From IMG/VR virus record IMGVR_UViG_3300006750_000004, positions 1-64,000 of that record: 64,000 bases of DNA; one strand, given 5' to 3'. Source of the DNA: a virus. The notes beneath the pieces are model-generated. The model ran no database searches. It was not told the origin of the DNA and saw only the letters and a list, made by a program, of their open reading frames with translations. Below, in pieces: positions 12,228-45,730 of this stretch. The position numbers were made by a program, and so were the translations under genes. The number at the start of each line of letters is the position of its first letter. The first letter of the stretch is position 1.

Positions 12228-12497
12228 CTAGGCACCCGCCACATCGTCAACCGGATCGGTAGTATACCATTCATTTGGACTGATTCCGGGTAATCTAATG
12301 AATGATTGCTGCCCAGCTTTGGACCCTCGAGAGCGGCCTGACCCGAGGGATAGGTGCTTTTGCTCTGATCCGGCGATCAACCCCAGTGCTTCGGTGGGTG
12401 TAACTCGTGTCTTATCTGTCTCTTTGTTCGGTGGGACTTGTACGAAGTCGTTGATTACTTGAAAATCGCGGTGGATTTTAATATCTTGGAATGACAT
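12228..12497 (-). CDS. Hypothetical protein
   Basis: GAGG SD; directly downstream of the adhesin gene. Confidence 0.6.
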   Translation of the reverse strand: MSFQDIKIHRDFQVINDFVQVPPNKETDKTRVTPTEALGLIAGSEQKHLSLGSGRSRGSKAGQQSFIRLPGISPNEWYTTDPVDDVAGA

Positions 12498-12507
12498 AAT
12501 GACCTCT

Positions 12508-26394: not shown

Positions 26395-27932
26395 CGTCCC
26401 CTTAAACATTGTGTTAGTCGTAACTTGCCAAACAAGAACAGGAACTCCCTGTACTTGGTATCATCGTACAAACTGGCAATAGTTATATATTGGAGAGCAC
26501 CAAGCATCTCAACATGTTTCCAATCGTAATCCTGTGATCTACAAAATTCTTCCAACTTATTCATCAACAGCAATAGATTGTATCTACTGTCAATATTGAC
26601 AAAAGCATTCCAGCCACGGATTTCGAGAGAATATTTGCCGTCTACGATGTTGGTTCCGTTGACGATCAAGGCGTGGTGCAACTTCCCTAGGTCGTAGTAA
26701 AGATCGCCAACCGTTGTGCTTCTACCAAAGGAGTCACGCCAGTCTAGGAGAGTAACACACTCCCGGTCTATGACGATATTTTCTGGTTGATAATCACCAT
26801 GGAAATGGAAGGGGATGGCCTTGTCGCAGATGCCCCACCAATCCACGATGTCTAATAACTCGGCAATAGGGCGTACCCCGATGCCATTGATTGTTACAAT
26901 ATTATCGACTTCTGTGCCGACGAAGGATTGTGCTCTTATTCTGGTCTTTTTCTCGTACATCTCCTGGCATGATTTGTTGAACTCATCGCCAGATTCTATC
27001 GGTAGTTCAACAAAAAAATCGCCACAAAACTGAATGAACTTGTCGAGCACTTTCTCATCGTAGGTGTGGGAGAGTAGATTCCCTATCACATATTCATAAC
27101 CGTATTGGTGGTCGCTCAATCGGGTAATTCGTGGTACTTTGCCAGCTAAAATTGTTGCTCTCTCACATCGGTGGCCGACTATCTCACTATCTGAGAAGAA
27201 TTTGACGACTTTGCCGTTGTCGATGTAGAGGACCTCTTCCTTTTTAGCTATGGTTACTGGTTGTGGGAAGTGTTTGAGAGTATTGTCGTATCGCTCATCT
27301 GTCCCGGTGTCCTGCCACCGAAATCTCTTGGCGGTCAATGGGACAGATGAGAATCCATTGATCACTTGGTGCTCATTGTTGATCGTGCTCTTGTCGGATA
27401 AACCGCCCCAGAACGCTTCATAATCGTGGATTCCGGCTATCCCGATGAAGACATCGTTGCCAAGTCCTTGGGCTGGGTCGTAGTAAAATCTCTTGACGTA
27501 CTCGTTGGGGCCTATATCCACTAGGCAGTATCCGGTTAGTTCGTCCCTTGGTCGTTGATCTACTCCCACCCAGTTATTAGTGGGTGCTTCTAATTTGGCG
27601 TTGAAAAGTGTGTCGATAGATGTGAACACGAATGGGCAACTGAGGTGTTCACGGCATGATAATAAGCTCAATCCAGGACCTGATCCTGGGCCGTCGTAGT
27701 TGTCTACTGTCACGAATGTGAAATTGTGATTTGGGTAGATGTACTCCAAGTAGGATTGGAGCTGATCGTGTAAGTGGCCCAATGCGATGACCACCTCAAC
27801 TGATGGATCCACACAATCTAGGATATATGAGATTGCGGGACGGTTGGCTAGTGGGAGGAGAGCTTTGTGGAGGTTGTGGAAGCGATCATTTCTAGTGCCG
27901 CGTCCTGCTGCCATTAGGCAGAGTTTAAACAT
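26391..27932 (-). CDS. Sugar nucleotidyltransferase fused to a choline/aminoglycoside-kinase-like domain
   Basis: AAGRGTR...HKALLP, WQDTG; HGDYQPENI, LLDWR, YYDLGKL. Confidence 0.85.
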   Translation of the reverse strand: MFKLCLMAAGRGTRNDRFHNLHKALLPLANRPAISYILDCVDPSVEVVIALGHLHDQLQSYLEYIYPNHNFTFVTVDNYDGPGSGPGLSLLSCREHLSCPFVFTSIDTLFNAKLEAPTNNWVGVDQRPRDELTGYCLVDIGPNEYVKRFYYDPAQGLGNDVFIGIAGIHDYEAFWGGLSDKSTINNEHQVINGFSSVPLTAKRFRWQDTGTDERYDNTLKHFPQPVTIAKKEEVLYIDNGKVVKFFSDSEIVGHRCERATILAGKVPRITRLSDHQYGYEYVIGNLLSHTYDEKVLDKFIQFCGDFFVELPIESGDEFNKSCQEMYEKKTRIRAQSFVGTEVDNIVTINGIGVRPIAELLDIVDWWGICDKAIPFHFHGDYQPENIVIDRECVTLLDWRDSFGRSTTVGDLYYDLGKLHHALIVNGTNIVDGKYSLEIRGWNAFVNIDSRYNLLLLMNKLEEFCRSQDYDWKHVEMLGALQYITIASLYDDTKYREFLFLFGKLRLTQCLRGR

Positions 27933-28570
27933 GGGTAATCTTTCCCGGTGTATAACTTAAACTGCTCTGCCGCCTGGATTGAGGCTAATCTTTGTCCCAT
28001 GGGCGTAGTGATCAGACAATCAATATAATGGTTGGATGGAACCGGTCGAACTTGTCTCTTCTCTAATGGAGTGCAATTGAATATAACAGATTGAGAAAGA
28101 TCCTGTATGCGGCCCCAATTGGTCCGTGTAATGAGTTCAAATTCCATCTCTAGGGTTTTACAGGCATATTGGACGGCTTGCGAATAACCACCATTACCTA
28201 GGATGTAGATTGTGTTTGACTGATGTCCTTTAAGAAACCATTCGGCTGCGATCCAGTCGGTATTGTAGGCGATTAGGTGTCCATCATTATTGATGATGGT
28301 GTTTGCGGCCCCGATATCCCTTACCGGGCCGGAGCATGCATCAACATGACTGATGACTTTCTTCTTGAAGGGCATCGAGATCCCGGCACCAGAAATCCCA
28401 AGTACACGCATTGCATCTAGTGCTTCTCTGATATTGTCGACACCGAATGATCTATAAATAGCATCGATCCCGAGATTTTGGAATCCTCTATTATGGAATC
28501 GGCAACCCCAGTTACCAGGTTCCTTGGAAAAGGACCCATAGATCTTAGTCTTCTTGTTGATGTTCGTCAT
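27914..28570 (-). CDS. Shikimate dehydrogenase-like (SdhL-type) oxidoreductase
   Basis: FHN, SMPFK, GAANTI, YNTD, LGNGG, NCTP, QAAEQFKLYTG. Confidence 0.85.
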   Translation of the reverse strand: MTNINKKTKIYGSFSKEPGNWGCRFHNRGFQNLGIDAIYRSFGVDNIREALDAMRVLGISGAGISMPFKKKVISHVDACSGPVRDIGAANTIINNDGHLIAYNTDWIAAEWFLKGHQSNTIYILGNGGYSQAVQYACKTLEMEFELITRTNWGRIQDLSQSVIFNCTPLEKRQVRPVPSNHYIDCLITTPMGQRLASIQAAEQFKLYTGKDYPCLNSA

Positions 28571-29003
28571 CGATCCTTCCGCTCGGCCGGTTAGTATCAT
28601 CCTCGTACCGCACCACATCATCTAAATGCGGAGTGGATGCTTCGATAGCCGTGTATGAGGTTTTGGCTACAACGCGGTGCTTGCGTCCGGTCGGGACAGA
28701 CCATCCGTTCCCGACTTTGTAAACCCGTGATTGGAGTACACCGTCTGCATCTTCTAGTAGAACTTCGGCCTCTCCTTCGATCACGAAGTTGGTCTCGTAC
28801 TTGTCTTCGTGCGATTGTAAGCTGCTCTGGTTCCCAGCGTCCATCTGGATGAGCTTCAACACGTAAAATTCATTGATCTCCATCCAGATTTCATAACCCC
28901 AAGGTTTCTTTACCCGGTAGGAACTGACGGTTAACTCATCCGGCTTCTGGTCTGCAATAAGCTGTCCGTAATCGGCTATGGCTTTGGCGATGAGGGGATT
29001 CAC
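28545..29003 (-). CDS. Cupin (mannose-6-phosphate isomerase type II-like)
   Basis: KKPWGYE, SLQSH..K.ET, HR, EASTP.LDDVVR.ED. Confidence 0.85.
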   Translation of the reverse strand: MNPLIAKAIADYGQLIADQKPDELTVSSYRVKKPWGYEIWMEINEFYVLKLIQMDAGNQSSLQSHEDKYETNFVIEGEAEVLLEDADGVLQSRVYKVGNGWSVPTGRKHRVVAKTSYTAIEASTPHLDDVVRYEDDTNRPSGRIDDEHQQED

Positions 29004-29722
29004 TTAGTTATCTCCACGTAAAGGCTGAAAGGTTGGCGGTTCGGCTTCCAGGAGTCGAACATGCCGCTCTCGAGCATGGTTTTTGAGTTCGATCTTTGAT
29101 ATTGACTTTCGTGGATGTCGACAAACCCTGCCTTTGTTAAAAGGGTTGAGAATTTATCGAAATTCCACCAGTTAATGTGTTGTGTGGTCACTTTAGGATC
29201 GTCTTTAGGTACCAGTCCTTGTGCCCATTCGCAAAATGCTTTAATTCCAAATGTAGCTTTTAATTTGACTTCCTGTTCTGGGATGCCCATTGGAGGTCCA
29301 CGGTAAAATCCCTTTGGACCTTGGTAGTCATAGTTAGCTACCCAGTGGAGCAGAAGACTCGAAATAGTGTCTGGCACATCATATTTTGCCCATTCTGGGC
29401 GTGCACCCCTGATAGATCGAAACCATTTCTCATCATTTAGGCGATATTTCCGAATGAAAAATTCGAAATCTGGCACAACTATTCTAAATATACCACCTGG
29501 TTTCAGGACTCGGTAGGTTTCTTCAAACAGATGTAATGATGTTTTGTCGTCTACATGTTCAAAGAAATGGGACGAATATGCATTTTCGACTGAATTGTCG
29601 GCGAATGGTAGAATAGTCTCTGCATTGAGAAAGTCGCCACATATCTTATCGATCCCACGCCAACCGGTTAAATTCCAGCTATCTCCTGATCCTAGATTTA
29701 TTCCTTTAACCATATTAATCAC
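29000..29722 (-). CDS. SAM-dependent methyltransferase
   Basis: NLGSG, LPFADNS, SHFFEH, RVLKPGG.FRIVVPD. Confidence 0.85.
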   Translation of the reverse strand: MINMVKGINLGSGDSWNLTGWRGIDKICGDFLNAETILPFADNSVENAYSSHFFEHVDDKTSLHLFEETYRVLKPGGIFRIVVPDFEFFIRKYRLNDEKWFRSIRGARPEWAKYDVPDTISSLLLHWVANYDYQGPKGFYRGPPMGIPEQEVKLKATFGIKAFCEWAQGLVPKDDPKVTTQHINWWNFDKFSTLLTKAGFVDIHESQYQRSNSKTMLESGMFDSWKPNRQPFSLYVEITK

Positions 29723-30347
29723 GGAGCGACAGAATTACGAATCCCAGTTTGATATCTGGTTGATTGTGTTGCTCTTCCTCGTAGTACTTGATTGTATATT
29801 TCTTAGTGAATGGGTCTAGAAAGTCTCTATTTGACAAAATTAGACCATTAGTATAATTGCTCCTGTAATTTGGTGATTCGATTGTTGTTGCACCAAGTTT
29901 GGTTTGGATTACCATGGTTGGCACAGCAATCGAATTCCAAATAGTCGCTATTTTCTTCCAATATTCATGGGTTGGGAAATGATGAATAACACTATAACAC
30001 ACTAGCAGGTCTGATTGTGTATCTGGTATTTGAGCATCTGGGTCTGAGAATTCGATTGTCTGAACAACCTTTTCACCGACGTAATCTGACGCTTCTTGGA
30101 GACTTTCTGAGGCAATGTCTAATAAAATAAGGTCTGAAAACTCTGAGATCATCTTCGCTAGCAATCCACCACCACACCCCCAATCAAGTGTCGTATTTAT
30201 AGCATCTGTGTCGATTTGGTCTAAAGCATGTTGCTGGAATCGGCCGATCAGCACTTGTTTCTTTTTAGGTCCTATCTTCTTTCTGAAGTGTTTATGTCCA
30301 TCACAGACTTGGCCCCTCCAGAATCGTTGTAAATCATTTGGTTCCAT
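29715..30347 (-). CDS. Class I SAM-dependent methyltransferase
   Basis: LDWGCGGG, LDI, YSVIHHFP; likely start MEPND in the second copy of the 40-bp repeat. Confidence 0.8.
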   Translation of the reverse strand: MEPNDLQRFWRGQVCDGHKHFRKKIGPKKKQVLIGRFQQHALDQIDTDAINTTLDWGCGGGLLAKMISEFSDLILLDIASESLQEASDYVGEKVVQTIEFSDPDAQIPDTQSDLLVCYSVIHHFPTHEYWKKIATIWNSIAVPTMVIQTKLGATTIESPNYRSNYTNGLILSNRDFLDPFTKKYTIKYYEEEQHNQPDIKLGFVILSLRD

Positions 30348-30404
30348 ACAATGCCTCGACCAATCGTTGTAAATCATTTGGTTCCATACAATGCCTCGAC
30401 CAAT
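30322..30404. repeat. Perfect 40-bp tandem duplication across a gene junction
   Basis: AATCGTTGTAAATCATTTGGTTCCATACAATGCCTCGACC at 30322 and 30362. Confidence 0.95.
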
Positions 30405-31060
30405 TGGACATCTTCAATCGTGTCGATGTCCAGAGACCGTGTTTTAGGCATTGAATATGCCCTTACTCGGCCTTTATAGAAATTCGGGCTTTTCTTAAAT
30501 GAGTCGGTCCACCGCAGGTATACGGCACCGTTGGGGCGGTAAATACCACTATGGTCTTGGGATCGTGTATTTCCTGTTAACCATGGTAGGCTGTGGTCGG
30601 AACAGTGAAGTAAACCATCTGGGTCCAGACACAAGCCTAAAGTTGGTGGGAAATCATAATCAGTAATACTTATTACGCCATCTATATTCTTATCAAGCAT
30701 GGCGATAGCACATTCGATGTCTTCTGTGCTTCGTAGCGGGCAAGTGGGAAGGAACTGGCCTACATAATCATATTCAGCAGCCATCCCTCTGTCAATAATA
30801 GCGTGAGTAAGAGAATCTAGGACGGTTGACTTGTCTGTGACAGTGCTGGCTGGCAGCATAAAAATCTCTGGATTGCAAGAATGCTTCTCAGCTATTTTGG
30901 TAATTTTATCATCATCAGTAGCTATGACGATCTTGTCGAATATTGGTGCCAAGGTATCGAGTGTGTGATGAATAAGGGGTCTGCCAAGTAGTGTGATAAT
31001 ATTCTTGTTTCGCAGCCTTTTCGATCCACCACGTGCTGGGACAAATGCTACACCCTTCAT
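30374..31060 (-). CDS. Acylneuraminate/ulosonate cytidylyltransferase (NeuA-like)
   Basis: PARGGSKRL.NKN, TDD, PTCPLR, NGAVY, SLDIDT.ED. Confidence 0.9.
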   Translation of the reverse strand: MKGVAFVPARGGSKRLRNKNIITLLGRPLIHHTLDTLAPIFDKIVIATDDDKITKIAEKHSCNPEIFMLPASTVTDKSTVLDSLTHAIIDRGMAAEYDYVGQFLPTCPLRSTEDIECAIAMLDKNIDGVISITDYDFPPTLGLCLDPDGLLHCSDHSLPWLTGNTRSQDHSGIYRPNGAVYLRWTDSFKKSPNFYKGRVRAYSMPKTRSLDIDTIEDVQLVEALYGTK

Positions 31061-31830
31061 GAGATCGCTACCTCACTGATTTTATCGAAGCGATTGAGTA
31101 GTCTAGCCCAATCTTTTAGCGGAATCTGGCAATCCGCGTCTGAGTAGGCTTGTGACGGATTTGGATGGACTTCAGCGAAGATGCCGGTGTATCCGAAAAT
31201 AGGGGCGGCTAGCATATATTTCATAGCTAATTCTCGGTCACCGCCAGTGAAATCGCCCTTGCGTTGTTGGGTCGAGTGGGTACAATCTAGAAAGACACGG
31301 TCCCCATAATCAGCCATTTCTTCGACAGCACCAAAATCGACGAACAACTTCTCATACCCGTGATTAGAACCACGGTCCGTAATCCAGACTTGTGCGTTGG
31401 GGTTTTGGCTTCTGATTTTCCCGGCGAAGTGTTTGGTGTTTTCTGGACTGACCCATTGGCCCTTCTTGACATGGACGATATCAAAGTGCTTGCCGCATTC
31501 GATAAGCAGGTCTGTTTGACGGCATAAGAAGGCAGGCACCTGGATGACGTCGATTAGGTCTTTGAGTGGCTCTACTTGATGGACTTCGTGGATATCAGTG
31601 GTAAGTCGTAGGTCTGGGAATTTTTCTTTGGCGGCGGCTAGTAATTCGAGTCCCCTTTCCCAACCTGGGCCACGTCGCCCTTGTACGGCGGATCTGTTGG
31701 CTTTGTCGAATGATGCTTTGTAGTACCAGTTACGGCCTTGCATCAGGTTGTTGAGTTTTTCAGCTGTGTTTAGATAGAGACTTTTTGTCTCCATTCCGCA
31801 TGGTCCGACTATCCATACAATATCCAGCAT
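31057..31830 (-). CDS. kdsA: KDO8P synthase (metal-dependent type)
   Basis: GPC..E, KASFDKANRS, TDIHE, QVPAFLCRQTDL, KKGQ, D.THS, EVHP.P..A.SD. Confidence 0.92.
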   Translation of the reverse strand: MLDIVWIVGPCGMETKSLYLNTAEKLNNLMQGRNWYYKASFDKANRSAVQGRRGPGWERGLELLAAAKEKFPDLRLTTDIHEVHQVEPLKDLIDVIQVPAFLCRQTDLLIECGKHFDIVHVKKGQWVSPENTKHFAGKIRSQNPNAQVWITDRGSNHGYEKLFVDFGAVEEMADYGDRVFLDCTHSTQQRKGDFTGGDRELAMKYMLAAPIFGYTGIFAEVHPNPSQAYSDADCQIPLKDWARLLNRFDKISEVAIS

Positions 31831-33590
31831 TAAAGACCTTCTTTATCCAGTCTGGATTCGATCAGCTGTAGAACTGCTTTGACTGCTTTGACGTGTTCTG
31901 GTTTCGCTTCACCAAATGATATCCTGTTGGTTGTTTTTAGTAGACCTTTTACGTTCAAGGCAATTTGGAGTGCGCGGTGCCATCCAATAGGTCCGAAGAC
32001 CGCGAATAGTGGGTCTTCGTACCGTTCTACTATTTTGTGGGCGGTGGTGGTGAGACCTTCTTTCATGGCGATGTAGAAGGCTTCTTCGATCTGTGGATAA
32101 ATATTGCCGATTCCACCGAGGAAATTTTGGGCTCCGGCGGGTTGAGTAAGCAAGTATCGACGACAACTACCTCCCGCCGGGAAGATGAGAAATTTGTGAT
32201 CAGCTTGGCGGCTTACTTTATAGGCCATTTCATAGGAGGTGCTCTCCTCCTTCATGCCGATAATATTATCGTGTTTCTTGAGTTTGGCGACAATCTCGGG
32301 TGTGAAGTTGTATGTGCCACCGGCTACCGCGTTCCGCATGAACATGCCGTGAACCATTACTGGCACTTTTAGTTTGTCGGCTGCCCTGAAGAAATAACCA
32401 CACACATCCTCGTCTGAGTAGTACCTGTCTGGGTACATGAGCATAACAGCGTCGGGTTCCCAACTATTGGCGTGGTCAATCCATCTACTTAATAATTTAT
32501 CTGGAACCGGGGGTAGCCCGAGAATCTTTGTACCTTGGAATTGGTTGCACGAGGCGTTGAGTGCCTCTATTTCATGGTTCGTCAACATGTTGAAGCGGGC
32601 TGTGCCAGCTGTCACCAAGATGATTTTAGCACCGTTCTTATGTAGGTGTTCCAGATAATTTTCGACGGCTACTTGGTCGAAGTCGCCTTGGCTGTCGAAT
32701 GCTGGTGGAATTGGGTAGATGACACCGCTGGTGAATTTTTCTGGGAACATTTCTCGTTTGATTCTGTCTGATATCGTCCAGGGGTATTGTTCGTGCTCGT
32801 AATAGTTGAATAATTCGTCGATTCCTGGTGGGATTTGTAGTTCGTCGGATTCTAGGACTGCGGGGATGTTGTTGGGTTTGCGGTCGTTGTCTGGTCGGAC
32901 GCATATTTTGGCGTCGATGAGTTTTTCGAGTGGTTTTTTATACGTACTAAAATACTTACTGTGCATGTCATACCCGTAGAATTGGGCTTTCATCGCCACT
33001 TTCTCGAGGTCCATTATTGAGTAGTGATGGCGGATTCCGATTTCTTTGGGTACGGGCCGGATGTCTTTTGGTGCACTACCGCGAATGATTTGTGGTCGGT
33101 GGATTAGGACCAGGCCCTGTTTTTTCTTGTGGATTCTGGCCGGTCTGTTCCAGAATTTCTTGGTGCCATCTTTAGCCACCACTACGTTGTAATATCTATA
33201 GTAATAATATTCGTGGTGTGAATAATTGAGTGTTTGAGTTTTGTCGATGTAAGCTCTTGTACCCTCGATACATTCTGGGGTATAGAATTCATCTGCATCG
33301 ATGTGCCAAACATAATCACCTGTGGCTTTGTTATAATAGGCAGCCACCATAGCATCCTTACCGACCCATGTATCTTTAGTGATAAGGATAATTTTATTAT
33401 CTGGATCTGGGAAGTCCCTGATTATCTGTAGGGTCTTATCCCTGGTCTTGGGGAACTTGTCACCTAGTTCTGTCGATCGCCCTTCGACTATAATTATTTC
33501 ATAGGCGTGGGGGTACAGATTAATAAGCTGTTGACGTATCAGATATGCCTCATTATAACAAATGAGACAAAATGAAATTCGCATTTTCAT
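31830..33590 (-). CDS. GT2-like glycosyltransferase fused to a DHDPS/NAL-family class I aldolase
   Basis: ICYNE, HIDADEFY, HHY; then PIPPAFD..G..D, NIIGMKEES. Confidence 0.8.
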   Translation of the reverse strand: MKMRISFCLICYNEAYLIRQQLINLYPHAYEIIIVEGRSTELGDKFPKTRDKTLQIIRDFPDPDNKIILITKDTWVGKDAMVAAYYNKATGDYVWHIDADEFYTPECIEGTRAYIDKTQTLNYSHHEYYYYRYYNVVVAKDGTKKFWNRPARIHKKKQGLVLIHRPQIIRGSAPKDIRPVPKEIGIRHHYSIMDLEKVAMKAQFYGYDMHSKYFSTYKKPLEKLIDAKICVRPDNDRKPNNIPAVLESDELQIPPGIDELFNYYEHEQYPWTISDRIKREMFPEKFTSGVIYPIPPAFDSQGDFDQVAVENYLEHLHKNGAKIILVTAGTARFNMLTNHEIEALNASCNQFQGTKILGLPPVPDKLLSRWIDHANSWEPDAVMLMYPDRYYSDEDVCGYFFRAADKLKVPVMVHGMFMRNAVAGGTYNFTPEIVAKLKKHDNIIGMKEESTSYEMAYKVSRQADHKFLIFPAGGSCRRYLLTQPAGAQNFLGGIGNIYPQIEEAFYIAMKEGLTTTAHKIVERYEDPLFAVFGPIGWHRALQIALNVKGLLKTTNRISFGEAKPEHVKAVKAVLQLIESRLDKEGL

Positions 33591-33598: not shown

Positions 33599-34042
33599 TT
33601 AAGTGGACTGACTAGTTGCCCATTTCCTAAGTAGCCTCATGATGCGGTTTCGTTCACGACGGGCCGCGATATCAGTACAAAAGAGACTAGATTCGGGCAT
33701 CCATTCATCGTCAGAGTTTGAATAGAAAAATTCCGCAGTGTCCCGGCTTCGTATAACCTCTACAATAGTAAATGGTTCGACTCGGAATTCTGAGGTCAAT
33801 AAAGACGTCATAGCCGCAAAGTCCATGTGTTGCAATTTGGGCAACTTAGCTTTGCTGTTCCAAAGTCTCTGGTATGGACCGCGTTCATAGAGGACTTTTG
33901 GATGATAACTTACCATCCATTTTTGTTCTTCATCTAAGTCCGGAATGGAGTCTTTGTTGCGAAAGACTACCCACCAGACTGTTTCACCTGTCTTATAGCG
34001 AGACAACTCTAGGACCGATGAAATCCGTTCTTTTCGAACCAT
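33599..34042 (-). CDS. Hypothetical protein
   Basis: 147-aa ORF in a minus-strand run. Confidence 0.6.
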   Translation of the reverse strand: MVRKERISSVLELSRYKTGETVWWVVFRNKDSIPDLDEEQKWMVSYHPKVLYERGPYQRLWNSKAKLPKLQHMDFAAMTSLLTSEFRVEPFTIVEVIRSRDTAEFFYSNSDDEWMPESSLFCTDIAARRERNRIMRLLRKWATSQST

Positions 34043-34070
34043 TTGGAATGGCCTTGTATGAGCAAGGTTA

Positions 34071-34286
34071 TTATCCGAGAATAACCCTGTTGGTCGCCTG
34101 GCTGATAATATCTTCTGCGATTTTCTTGCTGATTCCTGACGCGACCGCAGTCCAAACCCCGGCCTGGTTTATCTCGATCTGATAATTGCCAGAATTTACA
34201 TTCTGACCAGGCATTGGGATCGCTCGGACTGCAGCAGTACCAGCTGCTTTGATTTTTTGAATTGCTTCGTTAACATTTACAGCCAT
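34071..34286 (-). CDS. Hypothetical protein
   Basis: GGAG SD, 71 aa. Confidence 0.6.
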   Translation of the reverse strand: MAVNVNEAIQKIKAAGTAAVRAIPMPGQNVNSGNYQIEINQAGVWTAVASGISKKIAEDIISQATNRVILG

Positions 34287-34324: not shown

Positions 34325-35155
34325 CTATTCTATAAGGGCATCGAACGCGTCCAAAGCCATCTGAAACGTCTCCTGTTTTGTGTGGGCGTCTCCATGGCGT
34401 CTTCCGAAGGACGGTTCCATTATATACCAGCCATTGTACCCGTTGCCGATGGCGTCTTTTACAGTATAGTCAATCTTGGAGTCCCCAAAACCTGCTGGTT
34501 TGAATCCTTTACCTATCTTCAAATCCCGAACATCGATCGCAGCAACACTGGATTTCAATAATGTCCAATATTTTACGAATGGGTTTTGATTCTTCCTTAG
34601 GATAAATTGGGCTGGGTCATAAAGCAATTTCCAACGTTTGTGTTTGCGGAATTGGTTGGCTAATGCACTAGGTGTATCAAAATATGAATCAAATGTGATT
34701 TCGCACACAGGAGTTATATTGGCAGATATAGCTTTGGCAGATATCTTGCTCATCCACTCATCAACGAGGGATGTACATTCTTGCTGACATTGTTTACCAA
34801 TACCAATTCTGACCATTGGGGCCTTAAAATAGGCTGCCAGATTGAAGATATGATCAATCCGTGATTCACTGATTCGACTCAGGTTATTTGCCGCCTCGTC
34901 GCCCAAATCGCTGGCGATCATAATTACTGTCATATCCTTGTCGGTTATGATCTTACGTAATTTCTGGCAGGCGGTATCGGCGAGTGTGCCGATATTCCCG
35001 GTCCAGATATGTTTTAGAGCTATGTAGTGAATTCCGAAACCTAGGAGGTTGTCGCAGGAGATGCTAGGGTCTTCTCCGGCTTCCTCAAGATAAGAGGCGA
35101 CTCGGAGAGTATCACGCACTCTTCCTGGTTTAGTCGGTATTGTTTGCTTATCCAT
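34325..35155 (-). CDS. Xylose-isomerase-like TIM-barrel sugar isomerase/epimerase
   Basis: YDPAQF, DVRD, GFGD, GYNGWYIMEP. Confidence 0.75.
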   Translation of the reverse strand: MDKQTIPTKPGRVRDTLRVASYLEEAGEDPSISCDNLLGFGIHYIALKHIWTGNIGTLADTACQKLRKIITDKDMTVIMIASDLGDEAANNLSRISESRIDHIFNLAAYFKAPMVRIGIGKQCQQECTSLVDEWMSKISAKAISANITPVCEITFDSYFDTPSALANQFRKHKRWKLLYDPAQFILRKNQNPFVKYWTLLKSSVAAIDVRDLKIGKGFKPAGFGDSKIDYTVKDAIGNGYNGWYIMEPSFGRRHGDAHTKQETFQMALDAFDALIE

Positions 35156-35260
35156 TCTATCGGGAACACTCCTGGTGTCTCAATGTTTGTGAGGATGTTA
35201 CCTGCCCAACACCAACTATATACAGTGAGACTGCAGTCGCGTACGAGATTACCTGGCATC

Positions 35261-36430
35261 TTAATCCAGGAAGCAAACATGGTTGTTTTGTGGACCGGTT
35301 CCAACAATTGTGACTGGAATACCAGCAATATCTTCAACCATATGTATGAAATCCGTCACCTTTTTAGGTAGTGCACCATATTCGTTGGTGCCATAGCACG
35401 ACCAATCAATATAATTGGCGAAATTCAGAGCTATTTTGTTAGCTCCGTTGACGAGAGCAGCTTCTTTGAGCTGTTTCTTCGAGAACGTGAATACACGTCG
35501 TAATCTCTTGGTAACGGTGGTTAGTTCGCCTTTCATCACTTCTGGCGGGGCGTTTGCCTCTCGTGCTATGTTCTCCCACGATGTTTCTTCGTGGTCGTCG
35601 TAGTGGCCACCAGAGTGTCCAACCGTCTTACCGTCTTCGATGACATTGCCGACACGGATTGGTGCGGGTCTGATTACTAAATAGACGTCACCCATAGCAG
35701 TATGTGGTAAGCCCATGTCCGCCAAGTTCTGAATGGCGGTAGTACCCCGACTAGTGCATTGTGGGTAATGTGAGCCATGATTAATGTCGAGAGAGAACCC
35801 TTGGGCTCCTTCATGTAGGATAGTAACCCCGAAACGTTCCATAAGGACCATCAGCGTTTGTGGCAGGCTCATTCCTTGAACGTAATCAGAAATTTCTGGG
35901 TCGACATTATCAATCTTCTTGCCTATAGCCGATGGCATGTAACCAGATAGGGCATCATAATCTCGAGCAAGTTTAAGTTCCCTCTTACGCATGATTTTAT
36001 CTGCGAGAAAGGACCCACAACCCTGCATTGTGCTGGCTAGGTGTTTAGTACCAGTGGTTAGGTTGCCTTCGGCTTCCTTGTGGGCGTCTGTAATAACTCC
36101 AGCTCGTTCGTGGATTGTGAGTTGATAGCTGGATTCGGTTTCCTGGATCTCTTTATGCATCTGCTCAATGGTGAATGCTGCACTACACCCCACGACGATG
36201 TGTGGATCATATTCTTTGATCCACTTGCGAAGAATAGCTGCAGAGGGAAGAGCTTTTGCTACAAATTCGTCTTTGCCGTTTTCGTGAACGGCGGTATGGC
36301 CCGCATTAGCCATATTCGTAGTTGAGATGATTCCGGGGCGATAACGTGATGCTATGGCGGTACAAATAAGACCTTTGCCGCAACTACCCCAAGATCCGTC
36401 AGTTACTACATTAAATCGCCGGTCTTGCAT
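35261..36430 (-). CDS. purZ: PurZ-type 2-aminoadenylosuccinate synthase (PurA paralog)
   Basis: DGSWGSCGKG (Ser where PurA has the catalytic Asp), NMANAGHT, EGAQGFSL, YPQCTSR, ELTTVTKRLRRVFTFS, LNFANY (NFxN in place of TKxD), GTGP. Confidence 0.82.
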   Translation of the reverse strand: MQDRRFNVVTDGSWGSCGKGLICTAIASRYRPGIISTTNMANAGHTAVHENGKDEFVAKALPSAAILRKWIKEYDPHIVVGCSAAFTIEQMHKEIQETESSYQLTIHERAGVITDAHKEAEGNLTTGTKHLASTMQGCGSFLADKIMRKRELKLARDYDALSGYMPSAIGKKIDNVDPEISDYVQGMSLPQTLMVLMERFGVTILHEGAQGFSLDINHGSHYPQCTSRGTTAIQNLADMGLPHTAMGDVYLVIRPAPIRVGNVIEDGKTVGHSGGHYDDHEETSWENIAREANAPPEVMKGELTTVTKRLRRVFTFSKKQLKEAALVNGANKIALNFANYIDWSCYGTNEYGALPKKVTDFIHMVEDIAGIPVTIVGTGPQNNHVCFLD

Positions 36431-36505
36431 TTTCGTCTCCGTAGTTGTGTTGCGTTTTCATCACAGCATCTCAATACTGTGATGACTCGAAAACTTAACA
36501 TACAA

Positions 36506-36892
36506 CTATGTGGTGCGGAGAGCTCTAGATCCTGGAATATCATAGCCATCTTTATCCCAACCATAGACTTGGGCGGCAACATTTACTTCGTCTAGAGTAT
36601 CGACGGCTGGTTTTAGCAGTTGTTGTAGTGCATCGGGTAGATTCATTATCCGTATGACTATATCAACAACTTTTCCCTCACTGGAGCGAATAAGTTGCTG
36701 CACGGCTACCAAATTCTTCTGTTGCAACAATCTTTTTATACGTTGAGCCAGCAAGACTGCCCGAAGTTCGGTCGCCTTTTGTTCTAGATCACCTTGTAAG
36801 GCATTCCTTTGCGTCTCAAGCCAATCATCGTGTCGTGCGAGTAAGTCGGCATCCTCGCCCAACTCATTGATCTGAGTCAGCAAGTGATTCAT
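36506..36892 (-). CDS. Hypothetical helical protein
   Basis: 128-aa ORF. Confidence 0.6.
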   Translation of the reverse strand: MNHLLTQINELGEDADLLARHDDWLETQRNALQGDLEQKATELRAVLLAQRIKRLLQQKNLVAVQQLIRSSEGKVVDIVIRIMNLPDALQQLLKPAVDTLDEVNVAAQVYGWDKDGYDIPGSRALRTT

Positions 36893-37232
36893 CGATTTTC
36901 CTTACCCAATCTTCTGGTACCCATAGCCTCTTCCCCAGAATTTCGAGATGATAATGTTTGTGTTTACGGCCACAAATGAGGGCAATTTCATTGTGCCAAG
37001 GATGTTCTTCATTTACCAGGAGAACAATTTCTCCTTCTTCCAATACTGGGAGAATGATTGAGAGATTAACTGATCCAGTCTCCTGGATCGTAACGGCGTT
37101 TTCTGAAGTCAGTACGAAGGGTTTGTTGCAATGGTAACAATGGTAGGGACCGGCAAGATCAGTCCTAATAAATTCCCAACCTATGTTTCCACCGCAATGT
37201 GGGCAGGCAATATATTTATTGTGTGGTATCAT
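36864..37232 (-). CDS. Zn-ribbon plus SH3-like hypothetical protein
   Basis: CPHC...CYHC; small beta-rich C-terminus. Confidence 0.6.
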   Translation of the reverse strand: MIPHNKYIACPHCGGNIGWEFIRTDLAGPYHCYHCNKPFVLTSENAVTIQETGSVNLSIILPVLEEGEIVLLVNEEHPWHNEIALICGRKHKHYHLEILGKRLWVPEDWVRKIDESLADSDQ

Positions 37233-37932
37233 TTTCGTTCCCCAGCAATCGCCTTAATTCTTCAGGCTGTTGTTGGAGTTCTTTCACCACATTTTTGGCC
37301 TGCAGAAGATTTACAGCGAAGCGGGCCGCGTCATTGCAAGACGTAATAGTCCTGACGTTATTTATATTGCCACTTAGTTTTATTGGCACCTTAACAATGC
37401 TACGGATTGTTTCCATAATTTTATTATGGATATCAGGATTGGCCTTACTAACCTGAAGTTTCAGTTGAATATCAGTCCTGACATAAGCTGGCGTCCTGAC
37501 ATCCAACAATGCTTCACACAACGCTTTAATATTATCATCATCACGGCCATTAACTCCTAGCACAAAACGGACTTCTAAGGATTCGGCGAGATGAGTCTTG
37601 ATGAATTCTGTGAGTGCTTTAGCTTCGTTGCGGGAATCTATTTTATTCTTTCCGCCAGTCAGTAAGATTTCGAAGCCATCTGCATCTAGGGCATCTGTGG
37701 ATAGCCCACGCAGTTTGTTCTGACCGAAAATTTCCCCTTTAGGCCAATCAATAGGTGTGATTAAAAAATATCGTCCACCCGCCCTACCGCGATAGATCTG
37801 GGCTTCGGATGCTAGATCTGGGTGCACCACTAGTGCTGGTATTTTGTGTTTTGCGGCAAGTTCTGACGCTTCTGCAAGTTCGTTGGCTTGCATGACGTCG
37901 ATTTCAAGTCGATTGAGGATTGCTCCGCCCAT
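37216..37932 (-). CDS. Divergent DeoC-like (deoxyribose-phosphate aldolase fold) protein
   Basis: ALVVHP, TPIDWPKG (cf. TVIGFPLG), DADGFEI (cf. GADEID), YVRT (cf. FVKT), IKLSGNI (cf. IKASGGI). Confidence 0.55.
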   Translation of the reverse strand: MGGAILNRLEIDVMQANELAEASELAAKHKIPALVVHPDLASEAQIYRGRAGGRYFLITPIDWPKGEIFGQNKLRGLSTDALDADGFEILLTGGKNKIDSRNEAKALTEFIKTHLAESLEVRFVLGVNGRDDDNIKALCEALLDVRTPAYVRTDIQLKLQVSKANPDIHNKIMETIRSIVKVPIKLSGNINNVRTITSCNDAARFAVNLLQAKNVVKELQQQPEELRRLLGNENDTTQ

Positions 37933-38338
37933 ATTTAGTATCCAAGTAATCAAGAGTAAATTGAACGGCTTTATCCTCGTCCCTAAATCGGGAAACAATT
38001 GGCCGATTCTGGACTTCTGGTAAGAAATAGAATGTTTTCTTCTCCCCCATGGTGTCTTGTTCTGTAAGCAAGACGATCTTGACACCAAAAGCTCTGGCTA
38101 AACCCAGTTCACAATGTGAACCTTTACGAGCCGGGAACACCATAAAGAATACATCGGCGTTCTTAACACCAGTTTCTTCTGCGAGTCCATACTCTGCCAA
38201 TTCTTCATCGCTATATACTTGTCCGTGTGTGGTCCAATCATAAGTTATCTCACATCCAGCTTTTTTGAACCTGGCTTGGAGTTCGTTTGCTCTTTTAGCA
38301 TTTTGTAGGCTTGTGCCTATATAGATTCTACCACGCAT
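37904..38338 (-). CDS. Nucleoside 2-deoxyribosyltransferase / nucleotide N-hydrolase-like protein
   Basis: IYIG, TYDW, GVKNADVF, GSHCELGLA (catalytic Glu position). Confidence 0.72.
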   Translation of the reverse strand: MRGRIYIGTSLQNAKRANELQARFKKAGCEITYDWTTHGQVYSDEELAEYGLAEETGVKNADVFFMVFPARKGSHCELGLARAFGVKIVLLTEQDTMGEKKTFYFLPEVQNRPIVSRFRDEDKAVQFTLDYLDTKYGRSNPQST

Positions 38339-38400: not shown

Positions 38401-39033
38401 TTAAGCCTTCAAGTATTCATAGCCTGGCCAATCACGCACATCTTGTAATAAGATCTTTATTTTATTGTGCTCAATAGTCTCTCTAGTATATCCAACATTC
38501 CAATCAGGACCGATTTCGGGATCTGGATAAAGATTTAGGCCATCAATATCGACTTCAAGCATAGAACAATTCCCGCACATACAAGGATGGTGTGGACTAC
38601 CCACAGCACTAGGCATATGAGGATCTATAAAGTGACCGAGAAGATTATTAACAGCTTGTTTATCTAAAAACAAATAAATGCGGCCTTTTTCATTGGGTCT
38701 CAGACCTTTGGTTTTGATAGATGATAAATTTTCGGTTGGTGTGATATGGAATGCAAAACCGGTTGTTTGGAATGATTTAGTATCAGTAATCACAATTCGT
38801 AATGAATAATACTTCTTGGGTCCGCCAGAATGATATGGATTTGTTAACTCTTCCGATCCGATTAAATCCCAACCAATTTTGGTTAATTCTTGGCCCAATG
38901 CCTTCGTAGGGGGCGACTCAGAATTAACCCATATGTGGTCATCAAATGAACCCTTGATAAGAACTTTACCAAGATGTCTCTTGATAATTTCTAAAGCATC
39001 ATTCTTAGATTCACAAATACTTCGTAGTTTCAT
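38401..39033 (-). CDS. Tpt1/KptA-like ADP-ribosyltransferase-fold protein
   Basis: FHIT..ENL.SI.TKGLRP, RIYL, LEVD, LYPDP; N-terminal MKLRSICES. Confidence 0.6.
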   Translation of the reverse strand: MKLRSICESKNDALEIIKRHLGKVLIKGSFDDHIWVNSESPPTKALGQELTKIGWDLIGSEELTNPYHSGGPKKYYSLRIVITDTKSFQTTGFAFHITPTENLSSIKTKGLRPNEKGRIYLFLDKQAVNNLLGHFIDPHMPSAVGSPHHPCMCGNCSMLEVDIDGLNLYPDPEIGPDWNVGYTRETIEHNKIKILLQDVRDWPGYEYLKA

Positions 39034-39036: not shown

Positions 39037-39996
39037 TTACAGCTTCGCTGCATGTTCCAAGATTGCGTCAACGTTTTTATGGCTCATTTTACCAAACTCG
39101 TTGACAAATCCCCAAGGATTATACTCTGTACAGAAAGTAAATTTTGCACGTTCATCTGGGGATAAGATCTTGGCGGCTGTGTCGTAGTGTTCTGCTTCTT
39201 TCTGGAACCTGTCCGCTCGGTTCTTTGGTTCTACATCGGGATTATCACCGTAGAAGTGTAGTTTCCCGTCTAGACCGTCTGGGTTCATATCACATCCGAA
39301 AATATAGATGTGTTCATATCCCATCCAGAGAGCAATTTGCATCGAAGCATAGACTGAGGACCGTCCGATATGCAATCCTTTGGACATATCGCGACTGAAG
39401 CCGTTGCCGCCCAAATTCTTGAACTGCATGGACTTCTCTTTTTGCTTTTTAATGGCTGTGCTATTAAAAACAAAGCCATTAAAATTTGTCCATAGGTCCT
39501 CATGTCTCCGCATTTGAGACCCGTCAAAGAATGACCAATGTGATGTTGGCCAAAGTCTTGCGTCTGGTTTGTTGATCGACAGAGTGTCGACGTTGGGAAT
39601 ATTGCGGAGTTTCTCGAGTGGTGTTTCGTTTAGAGATGGCCCATTGCCGACGATGATTAGGATTTTTCCTTTACCAATATTCCTGATCGAGTTGACTTTG
39701 GCAATAGATTGGGGGGATACACCTCTAGAGACGTATCGAACTTTGGTCGCTCGCCTGATACCACGGCGGTTTTTGTGGACTACCGCTCCTGATGGTGGTA
39801 TTTGTTGTTGTGGTGGCTGTGCTTGTTGTTTAGCACTTTGCGACCGGATGCGGACTTGCTTCAGTTGCTTTGGTTCAGCAACTTTGGGCTTGCCAACACT
39901 TTTGACTACTACTTTGACGGTCGGGGGGACCCGAACGATGGCCCTTTTACGGACTAGTTGTGGTTTTAGTCGAGATGTTACAACTTGTTTTACCAC
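39037..39996 (-). CDS. Maf/DUF115 (MptE-like) glycosyltransferase-like protein with basic N-terminal extension
   Basis: IIVGNGPSL, SINK, SSVYASMQIALWMGYEHIYIFGCD, HFY. Confidence 0.7.
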   Translation of the reverse strand: MVKQVVTSRLKPQLVRKRAIVRVPPTVKVVVKSVGKPKVAEPKQLKQVRIRSQSAKQQAQPPQQQIPPSGAVVHKNRRGIRRATKVRYVSRGVSPQSIAKVNSIRNIGKGKILIIVGNGPSLNETPLEKLRNIPNVDTLSINKPDARLWPTSHWSFFDGSQMRRHEDLWTNFNGFVFNSTAIKKQKEKSMQFKNLGGNGFSRDMSKGLHIGRSSVYASMQIALWMGYEHIYIFGCDMNPDGLDGKLHFYGDNPDVEPKNRADRFQKEAEHYDTAAKILSPDERAKFTFCTEYNPWGFVNEFGKMSHKNVDAILEHAAKL

Positions 39997-43192: not shown

Positions 43193-45019
43193 CTACACCA
43201 CTTCGGTAATCTGAGAAAACCGATTGGTCCGAGTGACCCGAAGTTCCTTAGGGAATGTATCATACATCAAGTTCCGGTGAGAGATAATTAGAATTGTCTT
43301 CACCTTGGGAGCCAGATCATTCTTGATGATGTTGATGAGCGAGTCAATGCCGTCATCATCAAGACGGCCATCCACCTCGTCCAGCACTAACATATTGCAC
43401 TGACGACCATACATTTGTTCATGAAAATCGAACATTGCCAACATAAACGCGACATCCGTTCTTTTTCTCTCACCGCCTGATTCGAATTCATATCCCCACA
43501 AATTACTGGTAATACCCAACGCGGGCGTCAATTCAATCTGGACATCAAGCCCGAACACGTCCAGATAATGACGTAGTCGACTATTGATAAATGGAACATG
43601 TTCCTGGAATACAAAACTCTTGATCTTAGTTCGATCATTGTATGCTTTATAAATATAAGCATAATGCCGATTCAAGAAGGTCTCTTGTTCAATGTCCTTC
43701 TCTAGTTTAGTGATATCCTCACCATGCTCCTCTACGGATTTCTTGGTTTCGGCAATAGTAACAGTATGTGGGTTCTTTTCTTTCTGGATTTTAGCGGCGT
43801 CGGCCTTAAATCGGGCCATGGCTTTATCGTGGCGTTCCCACGATGAATGGGTGTCCTTGGCGGCCCGTATGGTTGTCTTGGGCTTTTTATCAGCCAATTG
43901 ACCTTCAGCCAATTTAATGGTTTGGTGGGTTTTAGTGAGATCTTCCTGGTGCTTTGCGAGTTTGGTCTTCTCTTCCACCAATAATTTCTTAATCGGATCA
44001 ATCTTAGAGGCTGTGTGGGCTGTTGGTACTTCCTGTTCGCAGGCATTACATATCTTCCCTGCTTTAGCCCCCCAGGTTTTGATCTTCTTACTTAGTGATT
44101 CAACAGTTCCTTCAATAGTAGCAATTAGACGGGTTGTGACATTGAGTTTGGTCCGAAGTGAGCCGACGTATTCTTCGACTTTTTTAACCACGTCCCATTT
44201 GGCTTGTAATTTTTCCAGGTTTGGTCGCTCGATGGCGTCTCGTCTCTTTTTCTCGTCTATAGCGGTCTGGAGTGATTCAGTGACTCGACGGTCACGGTCT
44301 TTACCATAATTCTCGGATGCGGCGGTTAGACGTTCTATCTCTTGGTTGAGCCGCACGATATTTTGGTTGAGCGTATTAATCTGACCACGTTTAGTGTCGA
44401 TACTACTATCAAGTTGACCACACTTACCTTTAGCATTCTTGGCGTAATAGGCGAACCGGTCTACATGAAGCACTCTTTCAATCGCTTTTTTACGTGTTGA
44501 ATCAGCCATCTCCATCCACGGTTTACCGTATTGGTTGAAGAATATGGATCCACAGAATACTTCCCAATCCAGATTGAATTCTCGATTGAGCTGTTTTTGT
44601 TGATTCTTCTGAGTGGATAAAGTCTCACTCGTCAAAGTGATCTCATTGCCGTCTTTAACGAAGTGTAACTCATTGTGGCCGCCAGATTTTCTAGTCCTGG
44701 TTATAAAGTCGCCGTTGGTGAATTCTAGACGTGCTACACAGTCTTTACCGGTGAAATAATTGACTATTTTATCACCAGGACTGCTAGAGTGCATGGTCCG
44801 ACCAAAAAGGACCCATTGAATAGCATTAACTACCGTAGACTTTCCGGCACCATTGGATTTGGTGATTTGTAGATTGGCACTATTATCGTATAGTGACTTA
44901 TCACCATCCACCACCTCTCCGGTAATGAGGCATTGGCCTAGTTCGTCCAGGTTTAGTACCGTCTCGTAATCGCCATACGACATGAAATTCTGCCAGGCGA
45001 CTGTCTTCAGCTCAAGCAT
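43193..45019 (-). CDS. sbcC: SbcC/Rad50/gp46-like recombination ATPase
   Basis: NFMSYG, Walker A SNGAGKS, Zn-hook CNAC, coiled coils, signature ESGGE, Walker B LVLDE, ISH. Confidence 0.92.
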   Translation of the reverse strand: MLELKTVAWQNFMSYGDYETVLNLDELGQCLITGEVVDGDKSLYDNSANLQITKSNGAGKSTVVNAIQWVLFGRTMHSSSPGDKIVNYFTGKDCVARLEFTNGDFITRTRKSGGHNELHFVKDGNEITLTSETLSTQKNQQKQLNREFNLDWEVFCGSIFFNQYGKPWMEMADSTRKKAIERVLHVDRFAYYAKNAKGKCGQLDSSIDTKRGQINTLNQNIVRLNQEIERLTAASENYGKDRDRRVTESLQTAIDEKKRRDAIERPNLEKLQAKWDVVKKVEEYVGSLRTKLNVTTRLIATIEGTVESLSKKIKTWGAKAGKICNACEQEVPTAHTASKIDPIKKLLVEEKTKLAKHQEDLTKTHQTIKLAEGQLADKKPKTTIRAAKDTHSSWERHDKAMARFKADAAKIQKEKNPHTVTIAETKKSVEEHGEDITKLEKDIEQETFLNRHYAYIYKAYNDRTKIKSFVFQEHVPFINSRLRHYLDVFGLDVQIELTPALGITSNLWGYEFESGGERKRTDVAFMLAMFDFHEQMYGRQCNMLVLDEVDGRLDDDGIDSLINIIKNDLAPKVKTILIISHRNLMYDTFPKELRVTRTNRFSQITEVV

Positions 45020-45061
45020 AATCGCGTTCCCCAGGTATAGAAATATACCTTAAATACGCGA

Positions 45062-45535
45062 TTACTCGTCTGGATGAGCAATACTACCATACAACTCTTG
45101 CATAGTATCAGCAACCACCATGCTGTCGAATTGTTTCTGTTGTTCTATAGCCCATTCTGGAAAGATTGCTTGGCGATTATTTCCATGAATAGCGTAGATC
45201 CAACAGTCGTTATGTTTGGCAAGCCTAGAAAGAATGCCGATTATGGATTCTTTGGACCATTGATCGGGTTCAGATTGGTGGCAGATAATCGCCAGACCTA
45301 ACGGAGTGTTGTGGATATCAATGATACAACCAAGCTTGTCTGGTCGAAGCTCTTTTGGCACAGACTCATCAGATCTCCATTGACATTGGTAAGTCCGACA
45401 TTCTTTGGGTTTGCTTATGTGGATATCACATCCACCTTCGCACTGATGCTTACATCGTTGGTGAGGGTGTTTGACTAGTTCTTGAACACCGATTAGCATA
45501 CAACAGAGTTGGCAATCACCACATTCTCTAGCCAT
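45062..45535 (-). CDS. YkgJ-like cysteine-cluster protein
   Basis: CGDCQLCC...C.H...C.I...P.EC..Y.C.W...LRPD. Confidence 0.75.
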   Translation of the reverse strand: MARECGDCQLCCMLIGVQELVKHPHQRCKHQCEGGCDIHISKPKECRTYQCQWRSDESVPKELRPDKLGCIIDIHNTPLGLAIICHQSEPDQWSKESIIGILSRLAKHNDCWIYAIHGNNRQAIFPEWAIEQQKQFDSMVVADTMQELYGSIAHPDE

Positions 45536-45730
45536 TGAGTATACTCTCTATCCTTGCGAATAATTTCGGATAACCCGAAGAAGAGCTTCTACTGGTTCAA
45601 CTTCCTTAGTTAGAGTCCACCAAAACACACGCTCCTTGAAAATGACTCCAGACGCATGTCCGTTTTGTACTGAATTTGTTGGAAAAAGTGCAACCGACGA
45701 ACCAGGTATCAACCCATATATAAAATTGAG

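Follow-up and report, generated by a model that had tools for sequence, protein, structure and literature searches.

How might a phage that seems to put the base Z (2-aminoadenine) into its DNA manage its nucleotide pool when none of the accessory genes known from other Z phages can be found? The question is raised by a 64,000-nt stretch of viral DNA (hereafter the window), bases 1-64000 of the 95,725-bp IMG/VR viral contig IMGVR_UViG_3300006750_000004, in which a PurZ-like gene lies in one block with genes for an MptE-like protein, an NDT-fold protein, a DERA (DeoC)-fold protein, two small open reading frames (ORFs) and a TIM barrel, all co-oriented on the minus strand. We read this block, from sequence and by analogy, as a variant of the Z-DNA nucleotide-pool machinery, in which an NDT-fold enzyme would have been recruited to a role like that of DmtZ, and a DERA-derived protein that does not use a Schiff base would act on deoxyribose-5-phosphate (dR5P) or on a deoxynucleotide; we give this reading a probability of roughly 0.45. 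DmtZ, an NDT-superfamily enzyme of PurZ0 actinophages, specifically hydrolyses dAMP to adenine and dR5P (Poubanne et al., NAR 2026, PMC12884076). A preliminary description of the locus listed the run from the NDT-like gene to the TIM barrel, every gene of which is present and oriented as described, and left out the conserved MptE-like gene (39037-39996) of the same block.

The contig, with a CheckV completeness of about 26%, is a fragment of an uncultured marine jumbo phage of roughly 350-410 kb, since its relatives reach 320-410 kb and several of them are complete or have terminal repeats; the complete ones include IMG/VR UViG 3300000976_000008, 3300013121_000020 and 3300014208_000001. Given this low completeness, the absence of genes was tested in five complete relatives (G004, G009, G015, G016 and G019) rather than from the window, and four others of 91-100% completeness (G034, G035, G039 and G043) were tested for a YfbR-like DatZ only. 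The records compared came from an IMG/VR search with the DERA-like family, which gave 23 loci, from a search with the NDT-like protein, which added one, and from a distant DERA-like subfamily (A7, 30-38% identity), through which 11 distant loci were found. DNA nearly identical to the window recurs in marine metagenomes (20 runs, 15 studies), with no RNA run among the sequencing runs listed with such DNA.

The PurZ-like synthetase and the missing accessory genes

The 389-residue product of 35261-36430 (minus strand) is predicted to be a PurZ-like succino-aminodeoxyadenylate synthetase, as suggested by its matches to PHROG 1211 (1.8e-54) and PF00709 (5e-33), by its best match in the PDB, which is phiVC8 PurZ (6FM1, 1e-35, vs 2e-15 for E. 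coli PurA), by individual residues and by its place in a tree. Its P-loop, GSCGKG, has a serine (S16) at the position of the catalytic Asp13 of PurA and aligns with GSTGKG of phiVC8. This substitution is found in all 147 phage PurZ proteins, while Asp13 is kept in 99% of PurA (PMC12884076). The residues reported to determine recognition of the dGMP 2-amino group and of ATP in phiVC8 PurZ (F12, S14, T262, F295 and Y298) have equivalents in our alignment, namely W14 (aromatic, for F12), S16, the threonine of LTTVTK, and the phenylalanine and tyrosine of LNFANY. In a maximum-likelihood tree drawn without archaeal PurA, the window protein groups with others of jumbo phages, and the sister (89/87) of their clade is that of phiVC8, SH-Ab 15497 and BCSR129; PurZ0 stands apart. 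A second, very divergent clade of jumbo-phage PurZ proteins carries GSSGKG, and every jumbo-phage PurZ of the tree, in either clade, has serine at the P-loop position (GSCGKG, GSTGKG or GSSGKG).

Could this enzyme serve something other than Z-DNA, either as an auxiliary PurA for AMP or dAMP or as the start of another purine modification? The NCBIfam PurZ model (NF038379) is its top match but scores 200 bits, below the 300-bit cut-off and little above the 187 bits of the archaeal-type PurA model; moreover, none of the known Z accessory genes was found, and these phages hold two deeply divergent PurZ-like clades, all of which would fit such an alternative role. On the other hand, serine replaces Asp13 in both clades, as in the whole set of phage PurZ proteins, the equivalents of T262, F295 and Y298 are kept, and phiVC8 PurZ is the best relative in the structural database, so that we regard a function outside Z-DNA synthesis as very unlikely.

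Two further observations concern PurZ itself. In one related record (L003, IMG/VR UViG 3300045256_000294) the PurZ gene is a 1212-residue ORF (L003:11720-15355) with two intein/homing-endonuclease insertions (Intein_splicing, LAGLIDADG_3 and Hom_end matches), and the MptE-like gene of the same record (L003:7507-9552, 682 residues) has one intein. One of the two closest GenBank matches to the window PurZ (34%, E 4e-56) is from the cultured, 55-kb Bacillus phage vB_BpsS-140 (L035, MH884512.1), which gave no HD_3, YfbR-like, DUF550 or DUF5664 match and therefore may also possess a non-canonical accessory set.

The preliminary description saw neither DatZ nor MazZ beside purZ, and this absence holds up when extended to whole genomes. 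The 95.7-kb contig has no HD or MazG domain and no DUF550 or DUF5664, and the five complete relatives have no HD_3, YfbR-like HD, MazG, DUF550, DUF5664 or Lyase_1 (PurB) match; the control phages phiVC8, SH-Ab 15497, BCSR129 and Wayne were matched for HD_3, YfbR-like, DUF550 and DUF5664, while MazG had no phage control. The four additional near-complete relatives likewise have no YfbR-like DatZ, and a search with the phiVC8 DatZ protein in 24 jumbo-phage records, run without a control, returned no match. G015 and G016 each have one generic HD protein; these were considered as DatZ and rejected, being YhaM-like and RelA/SpoT-like respectively. A canonical datZ elsewhere in the genome, which would have contradicted the description, was thus not found in the complete relatives, and the accessory set of the jumbo-phage module would differ from both known sets.

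Considering that N-glycosidic cleavage would act on dAMP, a step from dATP to dAMP is still needed. The window contig has no dUTPase-family gene, while the complete genomes have two, and the second of these, a paralogue of 184-216 residues conserved in the jumbo-phage clade (L027:303-878, L028:326-976, L029:482-1036 and L030:301-861), lies 14-43 kb from purZ. Some 40 residues are inserted in its N-terminal part, after motif I, and its score with the NCBIfam dUTPase model is close to the cut-off. In the window phage this gene is probably just past the left end of the contig. It is the sole candidate for the dATP-to-dAMP step, and a weak one. In G009 the canonical dUTPase copy has a fused N-terminal extension and is 292 residues long.

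The NDT-fold and DERA-fold proteins beside purZ

The NDT-fold protein (37904-38338, minus strand, 144 residues, of an ITYDWT/GSHxELG type) was recognized from profile searches and from its AlphaFold2 (AF2) model. Its Pfam match to PF05014 (E 3.7e-4) is below the cut-off, but a profile built from 15 homologues matches the CMP N-glycosidases BlsM (5e-6) and BcmB and MilB (2e-5 to 4e-5), and the model (pLDDT 88) has BcmB, MilB, DNPH1 and NDTs as its nearest folds, with MilB/BlsM-type matches taking Foldseek ranks 1-5. The putative catalytic triad Y6, D62 and E77 is invariant or nearly so in the family alignment, the motif GSHCELG resembles the nucleophile motif GTHVEIG of MilB and BlsM, and the loop after the first strand is TSLQN, with N13 conserved. 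From these sequence features the protein is predicted to be a (deoxy)nucleoside 5'-monophosphate N-glycosidase or transferase. It shares with MilB, BlsM, BcmB (CMP or hydroxymethyl-CMP N-glycosidases) and DNPH1 the NDT fold and a G(T/S)HxE(I/L)G motif, and these proteins provide its top Foldseek matches; it differs from them in that identity is only about 20%, the ITYDWTxHG motif is confined to the phage family, and the serine of their S-x-G-T phosphate motif is an arginine. The context differs as well, as MilB, BlsM and BcmB act in cytosine-nucleoside antibiotic pathways, whereas the window protein is found in a purine (PurZ) setting. A tblastn search of 50,697 GenBank phage records, Wayne-like phages included, found no match to the NDT-like protein.

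Immediately downstream, overlapping the NDT-like gene by 29 nt, is the gene for the DERA-fold protein (37216-37932, minus strand, 238 residues), whose start is the ATG at 37932 and not the TTG at 38088, in agreement with its homologues. Its sequence has no Pfam (PF01791 included), PHROG or PDB match, and no DERA of the PDB is found at E values up to 10, but its AF2 model (pLDDT 88.6) matches the DERA of B. halodurans over 201 of 217 residues with a Z score of 23.4 and a root-mean-square deviation of 2.2 A. The first 48 structure entries shown for the model are DERAs or designs derived from DERA, with the next entries at Z 16, and sequence identity to DERA is 13-15%. Against the BFVD library of viral folds the model retrieved only generic TIM barrels (TM scores up to 0.59). 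The family is small, since a profile search of 1.84 billion proteins gave 212 clusters (50% identity), when the DeoC superfamily would have yielded a far larger number, and it is distinct from DeoC.

In an alignment of 47 diverse members, E10, D62, K73, G86, E/D88, E103, R122, R152, K185, N189 and Q211 are conserved. Mapping of AYVRTD to DFIKTS and of PIKLSGN to GFKPAGG, which is consistent with strand position in the model and with a greedy profile alignment, places R152 at the Schiff-base lysine K167 of E. coli DeoC, R122 at K137, K185 at K201 and E88 at D102. Position 152 is arginine in 45 members and the K137 position is arginine in 43, while the equivalents of the proton-relay residues K201 and D102 are retained (K185 in 43, E/D88 in 46); the two members with K152 both lack K185 and R122. 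In addition, the glycine-rich phosphate loops are changed, with SGN for GGV. The mapping of R152 to K167 depends on the motif, on strand position in the model and on the profile alignment, which is of low confidence, and hhalign gives a probability below 1% for the family profile and E. coli DeoC, whether the latter is used singly or together with close homologues (at least 80% identity). To summarize the comparison with DeoC/DERA (PF01791), the fold is shared over the whole domain along with K185 and the acidic E88, and the differences are the arginines that appear to occupy the K167 and K137 positions, the altered phosphate loops and the missing Pfam/HMMER link. The Schiff-base lysine has thus likely been exchanged for arginine in this family, judging by sequence and model, and, if so, the protein is unlikely to carry out aldol cleavage of the ordinary class I kind. 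The suggestion that a DeoC-like protein would handle the freed sugar would therefore fail for ordinary DERA chemistry.

The DERA-like family and PurZ go together. All 36 IMG/VR records with the DERA-like family have a PurZ-like gene, which is within 8 kb of the DERA-like gene in 34 and 25-175 kb away in G035 and G039, and 35 of the 36 have an MptE-like gene within 8 kb of the DERA-like gene. In 33 of the 36, the gene directly upstream of the DERA-like one encodes an NDT-fold protein; in the close clade this is the ITYDWT type (22 of 25 records), while in the 11 distant loci the slot holds another NDT family of 180-220 residues with YLAGPVEH and GTFEE motifs, nine of whose members have PF15891 and/or PF05014 support and the other two the motifs only. 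The NDT slot upstream of the DERA-like gene is thus filled by two unrelated NDT families. As to the association with purZ anticipated in the preliminary description, the NDT-fold gene does belong to the module, though the wider NDT family also occurs in nine viral records that lack PurZ. These nine records (L052-L056, L058, L059, L061 and L062) are 9-137 kb long, one of them is complete, and they have no shared neighbour.

Such adjacency would also be expected if the NDT, DERA, TIM-barrel and MptE-like genes served a general recycling of nucleotides and sugar phosphates, in which host nucleotides would be degraded to bases and pentose phosphates and used again, and lay beside purZ through inheritance of the block, with no adenine exclusion involved. 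In all close relatives long synteny is kept on both sides of the module, from an SbcC-like gene to a giant protein of 1600-2300 residues, and the window module adjoins a large sugar-biosynthesis island; the occurrence of ITYDWT-type relatives in phages without PurZ, and the activity of the closest solved relatives, MilB and BlsM, on CMP and not on purines, also agree with a recycling function. Several features speak against it. The DERA-like family never occurs without PurZ, even where the two genes are far apart (G035 and G039), and a tblastn search with the DERA-like protein found no match in the same GenBank phage records, which include jumbo phages without PurZ. In L006 (IMG/VR UViG 3300010413_002638) purZ (11478-12659) is 65% identical to that of L016, of the GSSGKG clade, vs 38% to that of L009, of the window clade, while its neighbours are all of the window lineage (44-64% identity), which indicates that purZ was swapped in place with the slot kept. 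Considering also that one slot holds two different NDT families, we find general recycling an unlikely explanation of the block.

The MptE-like/DUF115 protein (39037-39996, minus strand, 319 residues) matches PF01973 at E 1e-7, just under the cut-off, its nearest ESM Atlas clusters are MptE-like and mostly viral, and it has a basic, low-complexity N-terminal region of about 100 residues and a weak N-terminal GNGPS match to CstII sialyltransferases. By sequence it would be either pyrophosphokinase-like or GT42/Kdo-transferase-like. A link to a CMP-sugar pathway was considered and rejected, as a CMP-sugar synthetase is present in three of the five complete genomes, far from the module.

The steady presence of this gene raises another alternative, namely that the DERA-fold and MptE-like proteins are themselves part of Z-nucleotide synthesis, with the NDT enzyme as a salvage or clean-up accessory; the DERA-fold protein could, for example, grip succino-amino-deoxyadenylate by its dR5P part and eliminate fumarate from it, as PurB would, and the MptE-like protein could be a (pyro)phosphokinase on dZMP. 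In its favour, the DERA-like (36/36) and MptE-like (35/36) genes track PurZ through the deepest divergence, and in G020 and G021 the MptE-like, DERA-like and PurZ genes are consecutive with no NDT gene. The five complete genomes have no PurB (Lyase_1), and loss of the Schiff-base lysine would suit a substrate without a free carbonyl, such as an intact nucleotide, just as R122, R152, K73 and K185 together with E10, D62, E/D88 and E103 would suit an anionic ligand. Inteins, often found in conserved genes of nucleotide metabolism, occur in both PurZ and the MptE-like protein of L003. At the same time, neither reaction is known for any enzyme of these folds, host PurB and host kinases suffice for small Z phages, and a Kdo- or sialyl-type glycosyltransferase is at least equally likely for the MptE-like protein. 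Finally, the NDT-fold gene directly precedes the DERA-like one in 33 of 36 records, as would be expected of a working NDT/DERA-like pair, and we think it unlikely that the pair is split between synthesis and clean-up in this way.

A proposed route and its relation to known systems

Under the reading that we prefer, a Z-DNA variant with an NDT-fold enzyme and a DERA-derived protein as accessories, PurZ would convert dGMP and aspartate to succino-amino-deoxyadenylate, as its residues suggest, and the host adenylosuccinate lyase would complete dZMP, a step that we assign to the host because no phage PurB was found. In relatives the divergent second paralogue of dUTPase, 14-43 kb away, might first bring dATP to dAMP, though its candidacy is weakly based. 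The NDT-fold enzyme would then cut a deoxynucleoside monophosphate, most likely dAMP, at its N-glycosidic bond to give adenine and dR5P, by analogy and given Tyr6, Asp62 and Glu77; it may also hand the sugar phosphate to free Z, by analogy with DmtZ. The DERA-fold protein, to judge from its fold, K185 and its obligatory adjacency, would bind dR5P, either free or within a nucleotide, with no Schiff base involved, and would convert or remove it. The MptE-like protein is a member of the module, with no step assigned to it.

The closest precedent is the system of the DmtZ actinophages. DmtZ moves dR5P from dAMP to Z and works downstream of DutZ or DUF5664, which turn dATP into dAMP, and its dAMP specificity has been tied to Asp12 (PMC12884076). 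Like these phages, the jumbo phages combine a PurZ-family synthetase with an NDT-superfamily enzyme in place of DatZ; in both, the NDT enzyme has a Tyr/Asp(Asn)/Glu triad and DNPH1 and MilB as its closest solved folds, and a dUTPase-family gene is present in the genome. Unlike them, the window PurZ groups with the phiVC8 type and not with PurZ0, and the module has neither a Dut-like fusion or neighbour nor DUF5664. The DmtZ actinophages, for their part, have no DERA-fold or MptE-like partner, both of which are obligatory in the jumbo-phage module, and have genomes of about 45 kb, vs 320-410 kb and marine hosts for the jumbo phages. That an NDT-fold enzyme may remove dAMP in Z phages, as the preliminary description proposed, is thus already established in principle, for an enzyme that is not homologous to the window protein; the precedent supports the proposed activity and does not extend to a relationship between the two proteins.

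With phiVC8, S-2L and SH-Ab 15497, which have PurZ together with DatZ and MazZ (or DUF5664-DUF550), the window shares the P-loop serine and the LNFxNY motif, its PurZ forming a sister clade. It differs from them in that the five complete relatives lack a DatZ-type HD protein, MazG, DUF550 and DUF5664, and in that no PolA-type DpoZ lies beside the window purZ. NDT domains have been statistically linked to dZ-enriched aquatic contigs, and one purified enzyme prefers a dA donor (Yang et al., bioRxiv 10.1101/2025.10.22.683976). Those NDTs resemble the window protein in being NDT-family genes tied to predicted Z-DNA phages of aquatic viromes and differ, by their description, in co-occurring with DatZ and PolA, in lying away from PurZ, in having been assayed on nucleosides and in having no aldolase-like partner. 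Neither of these two studies (PMC12884076 and bioRxiv 10.1101/2025.10.22.683976) reports a jumbo phage, or an aldolase-like or MptE-like partner encoded by a phage, and a literature search on PurZ with aldolase, jumbo phage or MptE found no description of such a module.

A number of points weigh against the reading that we prefer. The NDT-like profile (A2) has an hhalign probability of 1.6% against the DmtZ-DutZ protein of Wayne, so that by sequence the window protein is not a homologue of DmtZ beyond the shared fold, and an NDT-fold enzyme would have to have been independently recruited for a DmtZ-like role. Relatives of the NDT-like protein with 24-34% identity and the same ITYDWTxHG signature are those of the nine viral records without PurZ, and G020 and G021 have a DERA-like gene and PurZ with no detectable NDT-fold gene. 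The DERA-like protein would be connected to dR5P through its modelled fold and its context, and the apparent lack of the Schiff-base lysine counts against this connection. The records that bear the module are all related jumbo phages with long synteny, so its adjacency is partly due to common descent. The second dUTPase was rejected as an orthologue of DutZ, being no closer to DutZ of Wayne than is the canonical paralogue, and G015 has an HD protein 40 kb away, albeit an unrelated, YhaM-like one. Lastly, Z in genomes that carry the module is proposed from their genes alone.

In a bolder version, the MptE-like, NDT-fold, DERA-fold (with lysine changed to arginine) and PurZ proteins would form a self-contained, previously undescribed third solution of widespread jumbo phages (320-410 kb) to the making of a Z genome, with a new, non-Schiff-base DERA chemistry on dR5P or on a deoxynucleotide. 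Z-DNA would then be known from jumbo phages for the first time. The DERA-derived enzyme might then channel the dR5P of destroyed dAMP into dZMP, or might carry out a PurB-like lyase step. We hold this version to be doubtful, while worth stating.

Remaining genes of the block and significance

Between the DERA-like gene and purZ lie a conserved ORF of 128 residues (36506-36892), which has no match in family searches and is kept in 20 of 24 loci, and a putative zinc-ribbon protein of 122 residues (36864-37232), recognized by weak zinc-ribbon Pfam matches, whose cluster is present in 11 of the 24, making it a variable member of the module. Downstream of purZ, the xylose-isomerase-like TIM barrel (34325-35155, 276 residues) belongs to a family in which 10 of 14 members match PF01261 (best E 1.7e-12), and its weak PDB profile matches are AsbF and a sugar isomerase; endonuclease IV was considered for this protein and rejected, the profile matches being to AsbF and sugar isomerases. 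Being present in 21 of 24 close loci and in none of the 11 distant ones, it belongs to the closer sub-clade only. The syntenic block ends with two small conserved ORFs of 71 and 147 residues (33599-34286) with no family match, whose clusters occur in 13 and 18 of the 24 loci respectively. An ORF of 210 residues (38401-39033, beginning MKLRSICE), also without a family match, separates the MptE-like gene from the NDT-like gene; its cluster is confined to the window locus among the 24, and it is outside the conserved module. All of these genes are on the minus strand, and a promoter and terminator scan of the block gave no convincing minus-strand terminator between genes.

On one side of the block, between the conserved 147-residue ORF and the giant protein gene, is a window-specific sugar-biosynthesis island (25729-33590), any part of which is found in just one or two of the 24 related loci. 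It encodes an SIS isomerase, a nucleotidyltransferase-kinase fusion, a shikimate-DH-like protein, a cupin, two methyltransferases, a CMP-sugar cytidylyltransferase, a KdsA-type DAHP_synth_1 protein and a GT2 protein fused to a DHDPS-family lyase. The giant minus-strand ORF itself (12508-19500) has 2330 residues, and homologues of 1600-2350 residues end the conserved block in most relatives. On the other side, upstream of the module (43193-47551), are genes for an SbcC/Rad50-like ATPase (608 residues), kept in 19 of 24 loci, and for a DEAD_2/Helicase_C_2 helicase (606 residues).

Two Z accessory sets are known, DatZ with MazZ or DUF550 and, since 2026, DutZ with DmtZ and DUF5664, and the phages that have them are of about 40-80 kb. 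The module described here would add a third and would widen the range of Z-DNA to include jumbo phages met repeatedly in marine metagenomes. It also points to families tied to PurZ, namely a DERA-fold pseudo-aldolase never found apart from PurZ, a pair of NDT-fold families occupying the same slot, and an MptE-like protein. The DERA-fold, NDT-fold and MptE-like proteins are small, probably soluble and expressible, and a DERA scaffold without its Schiff-base lysine would be of interest both to enzymology and to the engineering of Z-DNA synthesis.

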